Origin: Podarcis liolepis
Taxonomy: Eukaryota
Direction: 5' to 3' (one strand)
Length of the DNA: 64,000 nt
NCBI GenBank assembly: GCA_965112155.1
Contig: OZ218099.1
Shown: piece by piece, positions 8,370 through 57,393 of the stretch
How positions within the stretch are numbered: position 1 is the first letter of the stretch
Layout of the letters: every line of letters starts with the position of its first letter
Made by a program: the position numbers and the translations under genes
The notes under the pieces: model-generated
Databases searched by the model: none
Told to the model about the DNA's origin: nothing
What the model saw: the letters and a program-made list of their open reading frames with translations, nothing else

Positions 8370-8582
8370 GCAGGTAGGTAGCTGTGTTGGTCTGCCATAG
8401 TTGAAACAAACAAACAAAAAAATTCCTTCCAGTAGCACCTTTAGAGACCAACTAAGTTTGTTATTGGTATGAGCTTTTGTTTTGTGTGCATGCACACTTC
8501 ATGTACACGAAAGCTCATACCAATAACAAACTTAGTTGGTCTCTAAGGTGCTACTGGAATGAATTTTTATTTTGTTTTGTTT
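8370..8582. mobile_element. Penelope-like element, family A, short inverted pLTR pair (hammerheads disrupted)
   Basis: Same sequence family as the 16.6 and 27.2 kb copies. About 50-bp inverted arms. TSD ATRCTTCTTGGC at 8358-8369 and 8583-8594. Confidence 0.8.
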
Positions 8583-16069: not shown

Positions 16070-16608
16070 CCTTAGCTGTATTAAAAGCCACATCTCCAAT
16101 CTTAAACCCCCATGACATGTATGCTGGTTTTTGGACAGTGCGCATCTCAGTCCATAGTTAAGAGCATGATGCTCCGAAAGAAAAGCAACTACATTTTGAT
16201 CCAGCCTGCTTAGGGAATGATGTTCCTGGGAGAGGTTAGATAACTCCAGCCTGGCTGGAGATGTCAGAGCGTTGGGACAATTTTATAGATCTCTCCTTTT
16301 GTGATAGCATCAGCATTCGTATCATCAACGAATTCTGTTTGCTCTCTAGTGTCCTCCCTGCCAAGTTAGTAGTTTTGCTAATTCTGTGGGCACAAATACT
16401 TTCATGCGTGTGTAACAACTGCTAGACCTTTTCCTTACCTATAGAGGACACCCAAGATGGGGTTGGGAGCTGAGCTTGTTGCTTCTAGGCAGTCAGAAAT
16501 GGCTTTATTTTCCCCACAATGTAACCATGGCAAAGGATGTGGGGATAAAGATCAGACTTCTTAGCAATGGACTTGGAGGCGCAGAGACCTGAACCTCTAA
16601 CCAGAGTA

Positions 16609-17098
16609 AAAATAAAAAAATTCCTTCCAGTAGCACCTTAAAGACCAACTAAGTTAGTTCTTGGTATAAGCTTTCGTGTGCATGCACACTTCTTCAGATA
16701 CACTGAAACAGAAGTTGCCAGATCCTTCTATATAGTGAGAAGGTGGGGAGGGGTATTACTCAGAAGGGTGGTGGGAATGGGTGATTGGCAGATAGCTGAG
16801 ATGAGCCTGTTGACGACTCTTAACGACTGCAATAGGTCTTACAGGAAAAGGCAAGGGGTGAGAAGGTGAAAAATGGCTTAGTCATGTATAATGAGATAAG
16901 AATCCAATGTCTTTGTTCAGACCAGGTCTCTCCATGGTTTTAAGTTTGGTAATGAGTTGCAATTCAGCAGCTTCTCTTTCCAGTCTATTTCTGAAATTCC
17001 TTTGTAGTAAAACAGCTACTTTGAGATCTTGTATAGAATGTCCTGGGAGATTGAAGTGTTCTCCTACTGGTTTCTCTGTTTTGGCTACCTATCTGTAA
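16609..17098 (-). mobile_element. 5'-truncated Penelope-like retroelement, family A
   Basis: Minus-strand frame 17082-16882 KTEKPVGEHFNLPGHSIQDLKVAVL...EREAAELQLITKLKTMERPGLNKD...* matches a GIY-YIG endonuclease C-terminus. Followed by a pLTR with hammerhead core. 14-bp TSD CTCTAACCAGAGTA at 16595-16608 and 17099-17112. Confidence 0.9.
16664..16701 (-). ncRNA. Minimal hammerhead ribozyme motif (PLE-associated)
   Basis: GUAU-CUGAAGA-A-GUGUGCAUGCACAC-GAAA-GC-UU-AUAC: core, stem II and a 4-bp stem I are present. Confidence 0.75.
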
Positions 17099-17392
17099 CT
17101 CTAACCAGAGTAGCCAGGGAGAGAGGCATTGCTTTCCACCAGAAAGAACACTTTTACTAGCATTTGCTGTGTCACAAATGGATCTGAGAGTTCAAAGTGT
17201 TTTATAAAGAGGAAAGCGGACCAAGAAGGGGGTGGGGACGCACAGAGATTAGGATTGGAGTGTCGTTGAGGCCACCATTAAGAAAACCTGCATTAAACTT
17301 GACTCGATCAGAGTGAATTCTTTCAAGAAAAAGGAAGCACAATAAATGGTAAATAATAGTTGGAACCTCTCTTCTTTTTTTGCCTCCTCTAG

Positions 17393-22063: not shown

Positions 22064-23364
22064 GTGAGGACATCTCAGTAGTCAATTATCTTATTTGGAT
22101 GTAACACTAAATTATGACTTAGCTTCATTACATGAATGGGCCTGCCTAACCCTAAGGCTTGCACACTTTCTTCTCCTCATGCAGTACAGCAGTGAGGAGG
22201 AGATTGGGAGCTTTTGCTAACTGCAGTTTTGCATTATGCCTCATTATGACTGACTGAAACAAGCCTTCCAGCCACGGTTAATGCTGTCTAATTTCACTAA
22301 CTTAACAACTCTGTAGTTTACCAAAAAACCATTAGCAGTAATGTATGACATTTCAACAATTTCTAATTCATGAAATCTTAATTAATATATACAATGCGAA
22401 AATAATAATGACATGCGCAACTCAAAGCCAAACAGCCCAAATATTCCTGAAATATGTCCATGAGAACAACTTTCTATTTGTGTACTTGTGCTGTTGCAAT
22501 CCCAACAGAGCTCTGACAACAAGGTACCCGGATTTCAGTCTCTGTTTCGTGAATCTTCTTCTGTTCATGATTTCACAAAGTTTGTGAAATTGATCATGCA
22601 TTATTATTTGTTTGCAAGGAGGTTATGTAATGTTGTGTTACTGTCCCACAGTTTCTAGTGCTTTTTCTGGATACTTTCCTTACTACGAAAAGACTGGTCC
22701 TGCCCCACTCTACCACCAGCAGGTTGGTTGCACATGAGTGCCAAATCTACTTTAATTGTCAAACCTGAATTTGCCAGTAGATAATTGAATCCTGCCCGCA
22801 AAGCAGCAAAAGTCTAGAAGTGTTTGTTCCTCCTCGTTTACTGTTGTGTTTTGAAGTGGACAGGATCTTAATTTTGGGAACACTGTATCTTTCTATCTTT
22901 AGTTCCTGAATAATAAATTTACCTTAAAAGAGATTCAGCAGTCTGTGGAGTCTGGTTCCTGCTTACAGGAGGGTGATAATTAAGTTTTACTGAGAAGCAC
23001 AAGGGTTTGCTTATTTTTTTTCTGCAACAATTAGGATCAGGATGTTAATTATTCCTAACAGATCACATCTGAGATAGGAGCTTATATCAGGGTCATAGAT
23101 AATTCATAATATTTTATATTAACCTTACGGCAGCCGCAGTGATGCCATCATCCATAGAAATAAACCATGCAAGAAGTACAGATTACAGGATATGTTCCAC
23201 AATTAATTACAGTATGATAATGTGAGATAAGTCAAGAACAATATAGGGTATATAAAACACTAATAGATGGGCTTTTTAAAGTTCATTGTTGACAAGAAGA
23301 ATAAAACAAAGCCCTTGTATCCACTAAGTATGGCCAAGTATTACACAATGATCTATAAGTACTA

Positions 23365-23690
23365 GGGAAAGGGAAAGGACCCCTGGACGTTAAGTCAAGT
23401 CAAAAGCGACTATGGGGTTGCGGGGCTCATCTCACTTTCAGGCCAAGGGAGTCGACATTTGTCCACAGACGGTTTTCCGGGTCATGTGGCCAGTATGACT
23501 AAACCACTTCTGGCGCAATGGAACACTTTGACAGAAGCCAGAGCGCACAGAAACACTGTTTACCTTCCCACCACAGCGGTACCTATTTATCTACTCGCAC
23601 TGGCATGCTTTCGAACTGCTAGGTTGGCAGGAGCTGGGACAGAGCAACGGGAGCTTACCCCATCATGGGGATTCGAACTGCCGACCTTCC
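23365..23690 (-). mobile_element. Sauria SINE (approx.)
   Basis: Reverse complement of the 38164/41231 family. Confidence 0.8.
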
Positions 23691-23924
23691 CATCACCACC
23701 TGCGTCCCTCTGTAAGCACTAACCCATAATTCACCAGTTGAACAATCGGCTGGAACAGTAAAGGAGGACTAATATAATTGCCTTACTGTGCATGTTAAAT
23801 GCTGGCTTCTGCTTATTTTTTCACTATTCCTTTAATTCTGTAGAATTAAGCACCTCTGATTGACTTCCGTTAATTATCACTTTGGGCAAATAGCCCAGTC
23901 CTTATCTCTCAATAGTGTCTTGTA

Positions 23925-24166
23925 CCGTGGTACCACTGGTTACGTACTTAATTCGTTCTGGAGGTCCGTTCTTAACCTGAAACTGTTCTTAACCTGAAGC
24001 ACCACTTTAGCTAATGGGGCCTCCCACTGCTGCCGTGCCACCGGAGCACGATTTCTGTTCTCATCCTAAAGCAAAGTTCTTAACCCGAGGTACTATTTCT
24101 GGGTTAGCGGAGTCTGTAACCTGAAGCGTATGTAACCTGAAGCGTATGTAACCCGAGGTACCACTG
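23925..24166 (-). mobile_element. Tc1/pogo-type MITE
   Basis: Reverse-orientation copy of the 11622 family; TA flanks. Confidence 0.9.
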
Positions 24167-27100
24167 TATATCACCTTCAGATGCAAGCATAGCTCACCCT
24201 CATTCTGATGTAATCCTTTATGATTTTGCGTTTGTCGAAAGAGTAGCATAAACAAAGTGAGATCTCTTCCAGTTCCCTGGGTGTGCTATGTAAACAGAAC
24301 CAATGAAGGCTGAACCAATGTTGGTGGCATTGAGCCTTCCTATATCCATGCCATCAAGATCAAATCAGCAGATTTTGCCACCGACTTTGCACTGTTACTT
24401 TGTAGAAACGAAGGTGTGTGATACTGGCGCAGGCAAATGTTAAGGTTTAGCTCTAACCTTATGTAACTGAATCAGTTGCAAGTTTTATTTTGCAAGCTGT
24501 AAAATATTCAGTGACTTCTGAAGCGGCAGTGATTGCTTTGATTTTGTCCTAAGCTTGATAAATGTTTAATTAGATTTTAAAAAAAATGTGCACCTAGCGC
24601 ACTCTGTTGTCTTCTTTAAATGTTCCTCCCCTCATTGTATGGAATCAGATATTTTGATTTTTGAAATGTGAAATTCTGGGCTGTGAATATACTTAAGACT
24701 CAGTTACCTGGGAACAAGACCCACTGAGTTCATTTTGGTTTACTTCTGAGTAGGCACACAGAGATTTCAAAGTAGCCTTGTAAAACTCTTACCTGCCTGG
24801 GGGGTTGTTGATGTGATTGACAAAGTTCTGCATCTGAATTGTCACGAGAAGCAAAAGTCAAGCCACACATACAAACCTATGCTTGAACTGGATCTAACTA
24901 GGTTTTTTTTTTTATCAAAACATTGTTACATGGTTTTGAGCACCGGGATAAATGTTTGTGACCTGAAGTGATATAGCTGATTTTGCTGTTACTATTTCAG
25001 AACTACTTGTACCCAACTTAGATCAAGGTACAGGCTACTGGGCGTTGGGTTAATGAAAAAGCTTTTTAACTAATTGCAGGGATTCTCTTTAATTGGGTAT
25101 CAAGAACCGGATAGATCCGGTTAATCTCTTACATAAGTCAGTGAAGCTGATCCAGGAAACAGTTCTCTTGGGCCTTTTGCTGTCTTGAGCAGTTAATAAT
25201 AATTAATATTATTAAATATTAATTTTCAGCTTGCCTGATCCGGTTTTGTTCTTAAGACTCCCAAGTAAAAACTGGGTTAATTGCCCCCGTGTGCTTTATA
25301 ATTAAATAAGTTGATGACTACCTCATGATAGATAGCAAGCCTAATCCTCAGGAGAACGGACAGTTCTGGGACGGAGACAGCAAGAAGGTGAAGCCAGCTA
25401 TCATGAGTGCCCCACGCTGGAATTATTTACTAAATCTTCAAAATTTATGGATTTGCCTGCCTCCTTTTTCCCTGTGTGTTGTTCCTTCAAGGAACCGAGA
25501 GGGCTCAGGGCTGGATGGAACTGAAATGAATCCTGTCAGGGTTTCTCTCCACCTAGGAGAAGCTTTGTCCTTACTGCACTGTAAATAAATGGGCCAAACC
25601 CTAATGACTGTCCTTCCACAAATATTCCAAACAAAGCTGTTGTTCGCTTGCTCTCATGTTCTGCTTGCGGGTTTCGAACAGGCATCTGGTTGGCCATTGT
25701 GAGGGGGGAAAAACGCTGCAGTAGATGGACCACTGGCCTGATTCAGCAAGCTCTTCTTAAGTTCTTACACTCTGAAGAAAATTTAAACTGAATTGATATG
25801 TCTAAAACTGCTCGCTGGTTCTTGAATGTCTCGGGAACCTCAGGGTGCTAGCCCTGCTCAGAATAGATCCATTTAAATTAAATAGTCTTTAGTTGATCCT
25901 GGTCTTTAATTTCAGTGGGTTTATTTTGAGTAGGACTAGCGTTGGATTCAGCCCTCGGGATATTTGGCAGTCACCGGGCTGCTAATCTTGCCCATGTTTG
26001 TGCATGAACTTGACGATTATAGTAACTGGTTTTCTGATCCATGTTAGCTTATTCCCTTGAGTAGATTCTGAGCCCAGCCCAGTGAAAAGAGAAGACACAA
26101 GTCTCCTGATGTCTAAATGCTGAAGACCTGCCCATAGCTACTCTATAGTTCAGTTTCTCTTCTTGCGGTGAGCCAATATGATCACGGGCTTCATTGTGCA
26201 GGGCTCTGTAATTGTTGCCCCAGCAAAGTCTCCTCCCAACCTGTTGGCCTTCCAGATGTTTTTGCACTACAGCTCCCATTGGCCTTGACCACCGGTCTTG
26301 CTTGGGCTGATGGGAGGTGGAGTCCAATAACATCAGGAGCACAACTGCTTGGGGAAAGTGACCTTGGCTTTCTCAGAGACATTGTTCCGTGAGTACATTT
26401 AAAGTGCTATGATGCCACTTCAAACTCTCATGGCTTCCCCCAAGGAATTCTGGGAGCTGTAGTTTGTTAAAAGGTGCTGAGAGCTATTAGGAGGCCTCAC
26501 AGAGCTCTAAATTCCCAGAATTCCCTTTGAAGAGGGATTGATTATAAAACAATTCCAGGCTATAATGGTCCAGCAATACAGGAAGGGACCAGTTTCTTCA
26601 GATCCTAACAACAGCTGAGCCCATTGAATTATATGCCACACCAGGCAGCTGCTTAGTCTGTTTGTATAGGAGAGCCAACCTTGGTTTTTACGATCATTAT
26701 TTTGTTTGAAGTATTTCAAAGGATCCCCTTCTCCCTCTCTCTCCATTGTAATTAGGCAGGAAAGAAGCATTCTGTTGTAGCAATAGAATGAGTTAGAGTT
26801 AGTGTGTGGTAACCACAACAGTTTCCCTAGTTTGAAAATGTGTCCGTATCGCCCCAAAGGTTGGGAACTGATGCAGTAAAACAGTTCAGCTTTCCTTTCC
26901 CCTTCCTTTTTCTTTCTTTTCTTTTTTTAAAAATTTGTTTATTTGGTTTTCAGATCAAAGTTTTGCAATCACATATCCAATATGCAACATAAAAACAAGA
27001 TTCTAAAGAATCTCCTGGACTTCCCTCTTCCCCTTTGTGGGTCCTATTGTGAATCATTTCCTCCTGCGTCTTTTATGATAATCCAAATCTTTTACATCTC

Positions 27101-27236
27101 CATTATGTCCACAGTTCACCATTAAACTACAAGTGTTATTCCAGTCCTACTTACAGATAGGTAGCCGTGTTGGTCTGCCATAGTCAAAATAAAAAAAATC
27201 CAGTAGCACCTTTAAGACCAACTAAGTTAGTTCTTG

Positions 27237-27274
27237 GTATGAGCTTTCGTGTGCAAGCACACTTCTTCAGATAC
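27237..27274 (-). ncRNA. Minimal hammerhead ribozyme motif (mirror arm)
   Basis: Exact reverse complement of 27337-27374. Confidence 0.75.
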
Positions 27275-27336
27275 ACTGAAACAGAAGTTGCCAGATCCTT
27301 CTATATAGTGAAGGATCTGGCAACTTCTGTTTCAGT

Positions 27337-27374
27337 GTATCTGAAGAAGTGTGCTTGCACACGAAAGCTCATAC
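27337..27374 (+). ncRNA. Minimal hammerhead ribozyme motif, sense to ARSG pre-mRNA
   Basis: GUAU CUGAAGA A GUGUGC-UU-GCACAC GAAA GC UC|AUAC; predicted cleavage after 27370; palindromic AGCU stem III. Confidence 0.78.
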
Positions 27375-30300
27375 CAAGAACTAACTTAGTTGGTCTTAAA
27401 GGTGCTACTGGAAGGATTTTTTTTATCCAGTCCTACTAACAGTTTTAACCGTTAACAATGGTTTTTAAGGTAAATTAAAAATTTTCCCCATTCCTTATTA
27501 AAATTCTGGTCTTCCTGATTTCTGATTCTTCCAGTCATTGCCAATTTGGCATAATCCATCAACTTAAACTGCCATTCTTCTCTTGTAGGGACTTTATCTT
27601 CTTTCCATCTCTGGGCCAATAACATCCGCACAGCCGTGCTCACATATATAAATAGTCTTTCCCCTTCATTTTTCAGGTCATTGTGATTGAAGAGAGGAAC
27701 TTGCAGTTTGTTTATTTATTGTTCTTTTTAAAGTGGGGTCCCTTTGAATGAAAAATGAATTATTTTTTAAGGAAAGGGTGATAGGCTGTTTATGAACGTT
27801 GACTTTTCAGGGGTAATATTAGTGTTTCTTTTTAAGTTACACATTGGGGGAATATGGCAACAAAGCGAAGTCTGTGGATCTCTCATGACTGGCAGCTTGT
27901 CTCCCTTGTTCATGAAATCAGGGAAGTAATGTAGGTTGTGCTAGGAACAACTAAGTTTTGAATTCGTGTATAGGAAATGGAAGGGAATTCAGGCTACAGG
28001 GTATAAACGACTCTGCTTGGAAATGGCCAATTTATTTATTTTTTTTAATTGTAATATGTGCCGTGACTTGTAAATATTCATGGCATGTATTTGTCATATA
28101 TGCGGTGGAAGACTTGATACGATGCAAGATGGAAATGATGGTAAAGATATATTTCATGCAGGGCACCGCGAGTCCGTTTGGGAACTGTGAGTTTGTTTGT
28201 TCCCAACATCCAAGAGTTTATACACGCACAAATACGCAAATGCACACGCACTAGCCGTAATCTTGTTCCTCTTCAACATTTGTCATCCCGCCCTTTTCCC
28301 TTTGGAAGGCCCTGAGGAAGAGCAGGCCTTGTTAGAGGAGACAAATATAGCTGTAAACAAGAAAACAGGACATGTTCTCTGGCAATTTAAAAATAACCTA
28401 GCCTAGGTTAGAATTGCCCAGGCTTCCCCCAAATTCTGCGTGGGAATGTTGAAGCCACCTGGAATCTGCAAAGTGATTTCCTTTTATGTAGTTAAAGCTG
28501 CAATCCTGTACACACTTGCCTGGATCCAGCATCCGTGCATACCCAGAATCGGCTCCAGTGTGTCCCGCCAGCTCACTGGGTTTTTAAGGGTTTTTTTTTT
28601 TGCAAAAACAAGTTTCAAATATCAACATATCAGACTGAATAATCAATACAAATTAAGATGACATAAAGAGAGTAAAAACGACTTCCCTCCACCTGTATGT
28701 GACTTTTCCTTTTAAATGTTACTTTTCTCGTTGTGTTCTTATACAGTGGTACCTCGTTTTGAGTCTGAAATACATAGATAATTATGAAATGATTGTAAAG
28801 TTTAATAGGTTAACTGTTTATATTTGGACAACTTTTCTGCTGTTCTTTATTGGAAGGAGAAAAATAATCATTTCCTTAATAACAATTTAAACAATTTTTC
28901 TAACTAAAGCAATAACATTATAGCATATGTATCCATGTTTGTTAACTGATGTGGTTAAACTTAAAAAAACCAAAAACACCTTAGACTGAGTTTTAGCACA
29001 CATGAAAAACTGAAAACAAATCCTTATTTCCTGATGAATAGCCTTTGGACTATAATGTAACTTAAATAGAAAACTATCTTTAGAAAGAATTTGCCTCCAA
29101 AAACATTTTATTTTAAAAATCTTATTTAAATAAAAAAAATCTGATTTTTAATTTTTTTAAAAAAAGATAAATAAATTTGACTTTTATCCACCCTGTTTCC
29201 AGACAAGATTGACTCCATACATCTTACTTAGGAGGGGAAAAAAGCCATACCACATGACATAAGTTTGAACTCATCTATTGTTTACACCTACACAATAATT
29301 ACCCCCCCCCAAAAACCCACACACACTTCAATTATTTGGAAGAGCCAATTTAACACATTGGAAAAAGAGAGAGATTTGCACCTGCAAAGATGCATGTATG
29401 GGTTTAAAAATATCGACTATACTTTAAATGGTATGAACAGGTTTGTTGAGAAGTGATGTGTGAAGAAGTTCATTAGCAATGCAGCGTTGGGGTCAAGGCC
29501 GTTTTGAGAAGGAAATTGCAACGGAAGGCGGATAGCGCCCAAGCTCTGCTTCATCCTGTTGCAACAAAACAGTTGGCGGTGTCGAGAGAAGCCGTTGTCT
29601 GCATATCACTTCAGGGAAATAAAAAGCTAATGCAATTAGGAACTAGGTTGTGGGAGAGGAAATGACTGCTGTCAGCTTTTTTGAAGCCAGTCACTCAGGG
29701 CGGAGCCTTGTGCTGTGCACATAGGCCTCAAATCTCCAAAGAGGCACTTAGCAACAGGGGAGAAAAAAGTAAACAGAAGAAACCTAGGATGTGTCAACAG
29801 AAAATTTGATTATCTGCTCATAACAGGAAAGAGCAACGCCTCTGCCAAAGCTTGGGGTTCTTCCCCCTCTCCCAATTTTCTGCAGATGCTAGAATCGAAG
29901 TGCAGTGGTTGGGATGGTCAGAGGCACCTTTTGAGTAAATTCACTGGCTGCTTTGCATCCCATATCTTAGTCTGCAAATGCAGAAGCCAACCATACATTC
30001 GTTGCGCTCTTCAGAAATTCGTACTGAAATGGTGGATGAGGCTGCTGTTTAAAGAAACTGGAGGGTTTGAGAATGGACAATTAGGTGAGAGATTGGGGTG
30101 GGAGTTTGGTCACATTGATGTGGTGCTTGGGAATCGCTGAGCTCAAATTTTTTTTTTCTCATTTGACTGGCTTAGATGGAGGCATTATACCTCCCTCTCG
30201 CCGCCATCTCCATTACCCAGATACAGGCCATTTTAAACCATTAAGACTTCCTCGTGGGGTGTCGCCTGCACTAATAAGAGCATGGTTCTAAAAGGACTGC

Positions 30301-31316
30301 TACACTGACGGCCTTTTGGTTCCAGCAGGAAGAAGGGCTAATGATCATTTTATATTTTTCTATCCTAAATTGATGCGTTGCAAAAATGGTTTGCAGCACA
30401 GAATGTGCAGGCCAGTTGTTTTCCTGGTTTACGTCCAGGGTGCACCTGCCTTGTGGACTGCACTAATACGCCACAGAACCATTCTTAAGGTACGAAAGCG
30501 AAAGACAGCTTTGCTTCTACAGATAGCTCCAAAGGTCAGTACTTGAGGCAGGTACAGCGATTCTTCCAGAGATACCTTGCCGTTAAGTACCTTTTCTTAG
30601 GAGCTGAGAGCTGGCGCACTTAGATTTTTGCTCCTTTGGACGCATCTACTGCTCACGGAGTCTTGATTTGGACTCTTTGAACCCTCTCTTTGAACCCATT
30701 CCACCTTATCCTTATCACATAATTTCAACTTACTTGCATCTTTATTGATGTTTAAACTTGCTCTGATTAGCTGCCCTGGGCGTGTTTATGAGGCTGTTAA
30801 ACTAAAGGGATCAAACATCTCCTGTTATTTATAAAAAGTGCCTTAAAGAATGGCTCCTGGACCAGAGGGAAAGGGAGAAGCCAAGGATATGTAACCCTCT
30901 TCAGGTGTTCCGTAAGTGTGTTAACTAAACATCCATGATCTGGTCTTTGTTCTCATTACCCTCTGTTAAGTTGGAGGGCGACTTTCTGAAATGGGGAGCC
31001 TTCTGAGCTCCTGGAGAACGATGAAGGCTGTGGAGCTAGAACCTTATCAGGGTTCTAGAACTTATGCCAAGATTCTAAAATGTGCAGGGAGCCACATGAG
31101 TTTGGAGGCTCCCTACTTCTGACGGTCACCCTCCAACTTGCCGAGGGCGATAAGTGTGACGTATTTTTTAGCATGCTTGCAGAACTCCTGGAGAGGGCTT
31201 GTGTGTCGTGCAACTCAACTTTTTGTTTGCTTGTTCAACCTGTGATACACCTCTTACCTTTCTACACAGAAGTATACTCAAGGTAGCTACAGAAAGAAGT
31301 TGCTACCTCGCAAGAG

Positions 31317-32167
31317 TAGGGCTGGGCGCTATCTGGTTTTCAACATTGTGATATATCACCAGCTAAACATCACAATATACCGATATATCACAATGTCTGA
31401 AATTCACGGCCTAGGACCTTCGTACCTACAGGACCGCCTCTCCTGGTATGCCCCACGGAGAACCTTAAGGTCCATAAATAGCAACACCCTAGAGGTCCTG
31501 GGCCCTAAGGAAGTTAGATTAGCCTCAACCAGAGCCAGGGCCTTTTCAACAGTGGCTCCGGCCTGGTGGAATGCTCTGTCTCATGAGACCAGGGCCCTGC
31601 AGGATCTGATTTCATTCCTCAGGGCCTGTAAAACAAGAGTTGTTCCGCCTGGCCTTTGGCTTGGAATCAATTTGATTCCCTCCCCCTCTTTCTTTTTTCC
31701 ATTCTCCTCCTGTGATGGGAGACTTCCCTGGCTTTTTTCTGGCCCATGTAGGACCAGTCTGGATAGTTAGCCTTTGTGAAGACTTGACATTTTCATCCCC
31801 AAAAAAGCTTTTGATTTGAATTTGCATTGAAATGAGGCTGCATTTTAATGTTGTATTTTAATCTTGTTTTTTAAAGTTGTATTTCAATCAATTTGTTTTT
31901 ATATCGGTTGTTAGCCGCCCTGAGCCTGGTCTTGACTGGAGAGGGCGGGGTATAAATAAAATTTATTATTTATTATTATTTATTAAATAAGCTATGTGGA
32001 GTCATTGGCTGGCTTCACTTTTGTTCCCACGTTGTGATTTTTGCATAGCACACACACATCATGATTTGCAATATATTGCCAGGTCAGAAGCTATGAAACC
32101 GATATTGTATCATGATATGAACTTCAAACCGGTTTTGAACGACATGTTGATATATCGCCTAGCCCTA
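31317..32167. mobile_element. hAT-type MITE interrupted by an L2 3' fragment (approx. 31402-31985)
   Basis: TAGGGCTGGGCG...CGCCTAGCCCTA TIRs. The insert encodes L2 RT C-terminus HGLGPSYLQDRL...RAFSTVAPAWWNAL and ends in a (TTA)n tail. Confidence 0.8.
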
Positions 32168-33552
32168 GGCATGAGCCTTGGTTGCATCTGTGAAACACAG
32201 GGAAACCTCTTTTGCCTGTAGTATCTATGGCAGTTCAGTGCAGTTTGGTTTCTTTGCAGCGTGAGGGTTGGACCTGGGTTGGTCTGCAAAGAATCACTTT
32301 CCCATGTTGTCCTTTCACCCACAAAAGTAAGCATTTAAACCAAAGTCGCACAAAGTCAAGTCTTAATACGACATGATTTGTCCTCTTATGGAATTGCTAT
32401 TCTTCTGCTCCAGGTTTACCCCTTGCACAATGATGCTTCCAGGCTAATTTCCTGGTTGCGGGGTGTGTCTTCTCTTCATCTCCCCCCACTCCCAGGTCCA
32501 TCAGTTTATTTCCGGTGGCGGAAGACAGCAGACTCCAGTTCCTGATGTAATTTCTCCTCCTTTCACCTTAATCTCCTTCCTCCTGTACTTCTTGCTAGGA
32601 ATAACTACTATCCCTTTTCCCCTTGCTAAGGATATATGCTATGCATGATAAAGGGGCACTCGGCAACTGTTTCTGTGGGTGAAAACAGACATTGTTATTC
32701 TCAACCATGGAGCCATCTGCAACTGTCATTCCCAAACTGAGTACACTTGCCAGGGTGTGGGTGGGTGGGGGAGAGAGAGAGAGAGAATCACCAGAGTGTC
32801 TTGCAGAATTACCTAATAGAACAAAGGATCCCAAGAGGCTCTGGGAGTGCCTCCTTTCATTTAACCTCTGCTGCTAAGCAGTTCTTCTGTTCCTTGGCAC
32901 TGGGAGTGATTGATGGCGTCGTACGTGATGCCAAAATGACCTGTCCTTAAAGGAGGTCACCCATTGCATCTCTGCCTGAGTCCCTGCTCTGAGTGTGCCT
33001 ACTTCAAGAGCTTTAATTTCATTGTACACAGGTTGTATATGACAATAAAGGTGTTGTTGTTGTTGTTAGAGAGTGAATTGTGCGTCCTGTTTTAATTTAA
33101 AGGGGAGGGGGTGGATAGTGTGCTTCAGTGGCCAGGCTTTTTGGCAACACCAACCTATGCCAGTTTAAGGGAGCCCTGGTCTCTGGAAGAGCCGCTTCCC
33201 AGGGACTTCGCAGGCACTGGAGGGTCAAGCCACCCAATGCTTCTTTCACTGCATCCTGCCACTGAGAGTCTAAGTTCTCCAACCCAGTGCCTGTGTCCAC
33301 GTGGTGCCAGGCCTGTAATTCTTATTCTTTTAATGAAAAGGATGCCTGCATGATTTGCCTGAGAGCGTCATGTGTTGATGTCAGACCTGTCCTTGGAGCA
33401 TCTTCCTGTTAAATCTGATTTAGCAAAAAATAAATAAATCTCCATATGGGAAATAGGAAGGAAGGAATACTTTTCGTTTCCAGATTTGCAGCTGTATACT
33501 GAATGTGCATCCAAGAATTTGCACTATGTAGGTTGCAGTCGTCTTCATTATA

Positions 33553-33804
33553 CAGTAGTACCTTGGTTTAAGAGCAGCTTAGTTTATGAACAACGTGGAT
33601 TAAGAATGCTGCAAACCTGGAAGTAGGTGTTTTGGTTTGTGAACTTTGCCTTGGAAGCAGAACATGTACTGCTTCCTGTTGAGTGTGTTCCCTTTGTAAA
33701 TTGAGTCCCCCGCTGCTATGGGAAAGCACGCCTTGGTTTAAAAAAACTTTGGTTTAAGAAAGGATTTCTGGAACGGATTAAGTTCGTAAACCAAGGTATC
33801 ACTG
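33553..33804. mobile_element. Tc1/pogo-type MITE
   Basis: CAGTAGTACCTTGGTTTA...TAAACCAAGGTATCACTG, TA flanks. Confidence 0.85.
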
Positions 33805-34452
33805 TACTGACACCACCTGAATCGCTGTTTGTGTTGTTACTGAAGCCGTGTTGTTGCATTAATCTCTGGTGTTTTGTGATTCCTGAATCAAGGGATACAC
33901 TGCCTACTCCTCAGCTTCTTTTGCCCGACAACAGTGCAGGCGTTGCCTAAATTGGTGATTTTCAAACTCGTGGTTTGGGTTCCTCGGAAGTATGCCTCAG
34001 TGAGAATATCAGTAGTGGCTGACAAGTTTTCCTGACCAGCACTTCCCTTGCAATGCACAGTTACAGAAAAGGATCGGTTACATTCTGAACAGCACTCTTC
34101 GTTTACTGGGGGACAATGGTGAGGCTCAACAGGCCCAGCTAATGTTCTGCATGAACTGACAGTGGTTCTTAGAACGTAGCTTAGCTTCCTCTGCAACAAG
34201 CAGTCTGGGGACATCTGTGGTGGACATGATGAGGTCCCCTGTTTGGTTTGAAAAACACAGACTTAAATAAGCAGAACCACTGCAATTTTGGAGAAAGAAT
34301 CTCTTACAATTTCAGGCCAGCTGAGTGGAAAGATGTTATATTATCATGGCCGTAGTAATAGACTGTTGGGCAGCCATGCGGCCTCCGTTCTGACCAAGCC
34401 ATGCCTTCCTCCATTTAATTCACCAGTGTGCATTTCTGTGTTTTCTCTCTAG

Positions 34453-57071: not shown

Positions 57072-57076
<5 letters not shown>

Positions 57077-57347
57077 GGTTTTGGTGTCTTCGGGTGTCTT
57101 CCCGTGTAAGAGTTGGGGTGTCTAGGCGACGTTTCGACGAGGTCTCACTCGTCATCTTCAGGCTGGTGCTTTCGGCTTCTTGTTACTGGAACAGAGCTCT
57201 GTTCCAGTAACAAGAAGCCGAAAGCACCAGCCTGAAGATGACGAGTGAGACCTCGTCGAAACGTCGCCTAGACACCCCAACTCTTACACGGGAAGACACC
57301 CGAAGACACCAAAACCTGCATTCCTGTACCCGTGAAAATCTACGAAA

Positions 57348-57349
<2 letters not shown>
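57072..57349. mobile_element. Penelope-like element, family B, 250-bp perfect palindrome within (TA)n
   Basis: 57072-57321 is a spacer-less perfect palindrome. 28-nt asymmetric tail TCCTGTACCCGTGAAAATCTACGAAAGC. Each arm carries CTGAAGA-T-GACGAG..CTCGTC-GAAAC-GTC. Flanked by (TA)n at 57027-57072 and 57350-57389. Confidence 0.8.
57230..57267 (+). ncRNA. Minimal hammerhead-like motif, family B (mirror copy on - strand)
   Basis: CUGAAGA 57232-57238, 6-bp stem II, GAAA 57258-57261, palindromic ACGU stem III, GUC triplet ending at 57265. Local stem I is only 2 bp. Confidence 0.6.

Positions 57350-57393
<44 letters not shown>

Follow-up and report, generated by a model that had tools for sequence, protein, structure and literature searches.

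The hairpin at 27140..27437 of the window (the whole 64,000-nucleotide stretch of Podarcis liolepis DNA that we analysed) is probably a young insertion of a Neptune Penelope-like element (PLE), in which two pseudo-LTR pieces lie head to head, each strand of a 12-bp staggered cut having primed its own cDNA, and in which the hairpin is a functionless by-product. We observed directly a target duplication, a tail on one side only, membership of a family and about two thousand sister hairpins. One nick would have primed synthesis at the start of the tail, the other some 35 nt deeper in the element, in a U-rich tract. Synthesis of the two cDNAs would have ended at about element positions 160 and 150, and a 2-nt microhomology would have joined their 3′ ends. 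Both templates would have come from one source subfamily, which would explain the variants that the arms share as well as the absence of mismatches between them. The locus is a further case of an already described PLE layout rather than a special one, and in itself it is of little weight, being one among about two thousand alike.

Structure, origin and location of the insertion

We found that the arms are free of mismatches over 103 bp, as the initial annotation had claimed: the left arm of the stem (27199..27301, + strand) and 27310-27412 are exact reverse complements separated by an 8-nt loop. The predicted fold had an energy of -217.7 kcal/mol (z = -31), and 0 of 100 shuffled sequences folded as well. 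The outer limits proposed there, 27140..27437, do bound the hairpin insert but take in the 12-bp target duplication at both ends. The two copies of this duplication (left, 27140..27151; right, 27426..27437; both +) are direct repeats of a length, 12-13 bp, that is the family mode, and the insertion proper is 274 bp. Its tail-bearing arm (27152..27311, sense on the - strand) is a PLE pseudo-LTR piece that begins with a ~35-nt extension present on this arm only (27152..27186, -), which we assigned as the PLE 'tail' from the bimodal arm starts of the family and the Fig. 2 legend of PMC8557442. The tail-less arm (27310..27425, sense on the + strand) is the inverted piece and ends in the U-rich tract; its portion 27310-27412 forms the perfect stem. 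The inverted duplication extends to about 27187 and 27426, but 4 nt near 27198 are deleted from the left arm, and over that full extent the arms are therefore not identical. When the left 158 nt, in the tail-bearing arm, were aligned with three other genomic copies, 158 of 162 columns agreed and the gap was the sole difference. The pieces meet at a head-to-head junction with 2-nt microhomology (27310..27311), and the 24-nt junction string is also present at 4 other independent insertions. A palindromic TATA-like box, by its sequence a putative promoter element, lies at the loop on both strands (27301..27308).

Three other origins were rejected. An assembly fold-back artefact is ruled out by the target duplication, the one-sided tail and the 4-nt difference between the arms, and also by like junctions in contigs of three DNA runs. 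As a microRNA precursor the hairpin scored at best 67.4 bits in Rfam against a gathering threshold of 90, equally on both strands. An amplified palindromic unit, whether MITE-like or a retrozyme, would be expected to leave many copies with the same junction and ends, whereas the junctions of this family are highly variable; the junction string occurs only five times, and the other four insertions differ in variants, ends and the side that carries the tail.

To place the element, we used a longer copy (locus L005) in which the same pseudo-LTR is preceded upstream by the end of an open reading frame with a GIY-YIG domain (PF01541, 23.8 bits against a Pfam cut-off of 22.6); the insert itself has no open reading frame. 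The translation of L005 also contains a CX4CXXC linker, which fits the Neptune CX2-5CxxC motif named in PMC8557442. Domain and linker together indicate that the family is an endonuclease-positive PLE, most likely of the Neptune clade, and the match of the insert's pseudo-LTR to this copy bears out the PLE origin assigned at first and makes the same classification the most likely one for the insert. It has the traits of the PLE layout, namely an inverted 5′-truncated copy, a 30-40-bp tail at one end and a target-site duplication, and PMC8557442 describes that layout as an inverted 5′-truncated copy with a 30-40-bp tail often at one end only. Units of endonuclease-positive PLEs described in PMC8557442 and PMC3846280 likewise have head-to-head inverted pieces, a tail at one end and a target duplication, and their pseudo-LTRs carry TATA and initiator-like motifs readable both ways, as here. 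The present insert differs from the published units in that its two pieces, of about 160 and 116 nt, are tiny and lack an open reading frame.

The insertion lies in an intron (22064..34452, +) defined by mapping the exons of an arylsulfatase-like sulfatase gene, about 5 kb from the donor and about 7 kb from the acceptor. Exons of this gene map to the + strand at 14.3, 17.4, 19.1, 20.3, 21.9, 34.5, 38.7, 48.1 and 61.7 kb, and one of them was confirmed by Pfam. The initial annotation had placed the hairpin in ARSG pre-mRNA; the sense orientation within an intron of a + strand sulfatase gene holds, but the evidence identifies the gene only as 'arylsulfatase-like'. Its motifs agree with ARSG, its putative name. 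The target was an older interspersed repeat, which forms both flanks (26960-27139 and 27438-27660) and is about 77-88% identical to a copy at locus L191; a paralogous copy of the repeat carries the 12-bp target once. Contigs from three DNA runs compared with 26960-27660, where both flanks are old repeat, included no piece spanning the stretch and so gave no empty-site evidence. The insertion is likely young.

Stop sites, junctions and proposed priming across the family

Sister insertions are abundant. Genome-wide we found 13,150 exact 30-nt hammerhead cores (0 for the control) and 1,931 back-to-back hammerhead pairs separated by no more than 120 nt, as against 12 pairs of opposite geometry within 300 nt. 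For a positional census we used a 23-nt marker with 16,358 matches, of which the first 100 (contig C1, 0-4.7 Mb) yielded 68 insertions, 41 of which were two-armed, and both arms reached the 5′ side of the hammerhead in 20. The tail was on exactly one arm in 40 of the 41 two-armed insertions; among these 40, the tail-less arm was the longer in 22, the tail-bearing arm in 13, and the arms were equal in 5. Arm starts were bimodal, at element positions 1-4 and at about 24-40. Target duplications of 12-13 bp were present in 24 of 47 hairpins, and in 12 of the 47 none was found. Of the 45 junctions that could be scored in these hairpins, 15 were blunt or had microhomology, 15 contained inserts templated from the element end and 15 contained other inserts. 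Templated inserts are typical of polymerase-theta joining. These patterns would fit priming from both strands of a staggered cut, at the two start sites demonstrated in vitro for the anole element, followed by end joining.

An alternative, possible but rather doubtful, is that the hairpin arose by fold-back, a single tail-primed cDNA having either snapped back via the 2-nt microhomology at the TATA-like palindrome and copied itself or, as has been suggested for rotifer PLEs, primed itself on an antisense template; in both cases the hairpin would still be a by-product. Head-to-head PLE palindromes have been read as self-priming on an antisense template (PMC3846280). Several features of the 27-kb locus would suit fold-back: the arms are identical within the stem, the tail arm exceeds the other in length, and the junction has a natural short inverted repeat. 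So would the short snap-backs of 8-9 bp seen in three of the four other insertions that share its junction. Against fold-back, the left arm has a 4-nt deletion that is missing from the right arm, the right arm stops at the U-rich site like nearly all tail-less arms, and locus L317, with the same junction, bears its tail on the opposite arm. Family-wide, a tail-less arm offers no template for a tail, so that simple fold-back is unable to yield one on its copy, and a longer tail-less arm, the state in 22 of 40 insertions, cannot have been copied from the tail arm. The one-arm tail, the longer tail-less arms and the pile-up of arm ends described below thus favour two separate primings over self-priming.

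Priming from both target strands has parallels. In L1 twin priming, both target strands prime cDNA and microhomology joins the ends, which produces an inversion inside the target duplication. There the two cDNAs copy separate parts of a single RNA, whereas here one stretch was copied twice, so two pseudo-LTR copies or two RNAs are needed. In vitro, the protein of an anole PLE nicks and extends both strands, and its two start sites bound the tail (PMC11167929). In that system, the Poseidon element PAc of Anolis, both target strands were extended from the two starts and uncut RNA was the main template (PMC11167929); PAc belongs to the Poseidon clade, in contrast to Neptune here, so that these in vitro data come from another clade. 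The portion of PMC11167929 that we drew on gives no account of inverted insertions or of a fixed stop upstream of the hammerhead.

Such a stop was evident in the census, in which 41 of 106 arm ends fell at positions 123-133, whereas the following 11 positions had 7 and the vicinity of the hammerhead cut 2, the 23-nt marker being blind to arm ends before position 89. That only 2 of the 106 ended near the cut indicates that templates are seldom cut RNA. An initiator-like A occupies position 129 of the sense strand, 3 nt before helix I, with a TATA-like box 30 nt upstream of it, and the pile-up of ends may represent run-off at the 5′ end of the RNA. We rank below this transcription-start reading the possibility that the hot spot is a 3′ splice site overlapping the same bases. 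An intron in D. virilis does end at helix I (PMC4209133), 46 nt plus 75 nt after the start (PMC4209133; PMC2377424), which would agree with splicing; however, no shared upstream exon follows, and the AG is included in 31 of 90 hairpin arm ends against 4 of 90 that lie at the exon boundary. The arms of the 27-kb insert run past the stop site, to about 160 and 150, and are therefore likely to come from downstream pseudo-LTR copies; the TATA-like palindrome has accordingly been left in the loop with initiator-like sites on both sides. These sites lie downstream of the box (27301-27308) at 27277 (30 nt, - strand) and 27334 (32 nt, + strand), and transcripts starting there would have a hammerhead without the antisense arm. 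Longer copies have a GC-rich stretch immediately upstream, which the 27-kb insert lacks. In the right arm, 27323-27335 comprises a pyrimidine tract and CAG and resembles a 3′ splice site in sense orientation within the host intron, a signal that the hairpin would bury.

With somewhat less than even confidence, we regard the roughly 1,900 hairpins as a fossil record of a dimeric particle that primes both strands of a 12-13-bp cut at two internal starts, runs off its templates and leaves the ends to theta-like joining. The template would usually be the 5′ pseudo-LTR of an uncut RNA, run-off would occur at the TATA/initiator start 3 nt before the hammerhead, and the palindromic hammerhead may hold two template RNAs together. 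If true, this account would replace the self-priming model for head-to-head PLE insertions. It predicts that transcription starts 3 nt before the hammerhead and that each insertion has two RNA templates, and the pattern bears on the post-priming steps of Penelope-like retrotransposition, which PMC11167929 leaves unvalidated. In a literature search that lay outside most subscription journals and supplements, we found no paper proposing two-template priming with start-site run-off for PLEs, and the family-wide pattern of tails, arm lengths and stop sites may be new.

Variants in the two arms bear on the number of templates. The initial annotation had singled out variants common to both arms; these are real but not private, since both occur together in 6 of 29 other best-matching copies. 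The variants were inherited from the source and mark nothing special at the locus. At the stem-loop site, we found 99 hairpin matches genome-wide with the variant on both arms (A/A), the 27-kb insert among them, and 42 mixed A/T hairpins, compared with 3 G/T and 22 C/T in same-site controls. The mixed hairpins hint at two templates. Linked markers, available in 30 of the 42, did not confirm this, the second marker being present in only 1 of the 30, and a mutation hot spot is therefore possible; 2 mixed pairs had a rare variant in common yet differed at the loop site. Arms usually have rare variants in common, which fits templates from the same source and equally the copying of one arm from the other. 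Across the hammerhead region, 40 of 84 arm pairs were identical, in a set in which 10 pairs had been selected for resembling the query and 2 are probably cross-pairs, and the arm-to-arm mismatch was 69/6387 (1.1%) against 1.6% when shuffled.

Hammerheads and proposed roles of the hairpin

The initial annotation had also reported a minimal hammerhead with palindromic stem III on each strand, and our motif scan agrees: type I motifs lie at 27337..27374 (+, sense in the host pre-mRNA) and 27237..27274 (-, antisense to the host gene), and the predicted cut after 27370 can be derived from the sequence. In tests of the core we found CUGANGA and GAAA, an NUH site, helices I and II and palindromic helix III positions. 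Like the PLE minimal hammerheads of PMC4209133, these motifs have a short helix I, an extra base before helix II and palindromic helix III positions; dual minimal hammerheads about 100-700 bp apart on opposite strands are likewise already in print (PMC4209133). In a search of Rfam, no hammerhead family matched at E <= 1 and the hits were confined to microRNA hairpins below threshold, a result of little weight for minimal motifs, which lack the stem III that the curated models contain. Folded alone, 27334-27378 had pair probabilities of about 0.8 for stem I and 0.9 for stem II, and extending the RNA from 27334 to 27425 lowered stem I to 0.04. The right arm in its read-through context (27310-27425) had a stem I probability of 0.0 and is predicted to lack a hammerhead fold, and in the full insert the probabilities of both stems were 0.0. 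The stem II loop variant present here disrupts the perfect palindrome of the stem, giving a predicted dimer of -27.7 rather than -33.2 kcal/mol.

Single minimal hammerhead motifs are inactive in vitro according to PMC4209133, an anole PLE hammerhead cut only with its protein (PMC11167929), and tandem retrozymes showed cleavage in 1 of 9 dimers (bioRxiv preprint 10.64898/2026.07.22.740005). The lone minimal hammerhead of the insert would probably not cut in the host pre-mRNA anyway. In one RNA run of a related species, 12% of which was read, 1,369 reads matched the insert, but 97% of them continue into unlike sequence and thus derive from other copies. Among the reads listed from that run, no pile of ends was present at the predicted cut, and 11 reads started at 27318. 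Among the rows shown, there were 11 T>C places in RNA versus 5 per DNA run, the DNA being unmatched to the RNA.

The hairpin is likely a functionless by-product of insertion and not a ribozyme safety catch. The initial annotation had proposed the latter: that in pre-mRNA the antisense arm, transcribed first, zips up the sense ribozyme. The arms are predicted to pair in the host pre-mRNA and bury the sense hammerhead, in agreement with the stem probabilities of 0.0, but an antisense arm comes first whichever way the hairpin is transcribed. The further step, that this is a built-in self-inhibitor enabling persistence in introns, is unsupported, because insertion itself sets the geometry, which is symmetric (1,931 pairs against 12), and lone motifs are reported inactive. 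We therefore consider it very improbable that the antisense arm was selected to shield the host pre-mRNA, with hairpins persisting in introns while lone sense copies are purged. In favour of such shielding, the full hairpin is predicted to abolish the hammerhead fold; yet the layout is fixed by mechanism and, across the 1,931 pairs, identical in both directions, no hammerhead fold is predicted for the right arm by itself in read-through context, monomers are inactive (PMC4209133) or protein-dependent (PMC11167929), and arms ending close to the cut number only 2 of 106 in the census. We also sampled introns in 990 kb within three laminin-G genes (neurexin-1-like exons were confirmed for the gene on C3, one exon for C13 and none for C16), which contained 8 motif matches in 6 insertions: 3 un- or partly paired sense motifs, 1 antisense motif and 2 full hairpins, too few to reveal a bias. 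Stem I is damaged in two of the 3 sense motifs and the remaining one is partly paired, so the sample lacks a sense motif that is both intact and entirely unpaired, a lack that would suit purging; against this, sense motifs are no fewer than antisense ones. A genome with thousands of near-perfect hairpins of roughly 60-200 bp is a data set on selection against intronic dsRNA or sense hammerheads.

The duplex may be edited or diced, like any sister hairpin, and siRNAs from it are plausible, as already in print for inverted Penelope copies in Drosophila (PMC3681739). A broader proposal, in which the hairpin insertions jointly supply endogenous siRNA or edited dsRNA that restrains the family, no single locus being required, seems to us unlikely. 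About 1,900 near-perfect hairpins exist, many of them probably in transcribed introns, and Drosophila Penelope siRNAs map to such inverted regions (PMC3681739); those siRNAs, however, silenced Penelope inefficiently, according to the same source. The family grew to over 13,000 exact cores. Moreover, intronic dsRNA is nuclear and short-lived, and the somatic output of endo-siRNA in amniotes is usually low.

Other insertions were seen alongside the 27-kb hairpin. The same family has a further two-armed insertion at 8371-8574 of the window, which looks older and has its tail on the left arm; its arms are cut within the hammerhead, leaving no complete core on the + strand. The 16.6-kb copy (16597-17112) is two-armed, with about 475 bp tail-less, a 17-nt inverted tail and a 13-bp target duplication, and is an extreme case of a longer tail-less arm; its hammerhead (-, 16664-16701) is the third motif of the window and is antisense to the host gene. 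At three loci on contig C20 (L011, L012 and L013), flank and insertion are common to all, probably by segmental duplication. A perfect, loop-less 125-bp palindrome within (TA)n at 57072-57350 belongs to another family and has a hammerhead-like core and a short one-sided extension, and an ATG at the start of its stem II recalls the Poseidon element of PMC11167929.
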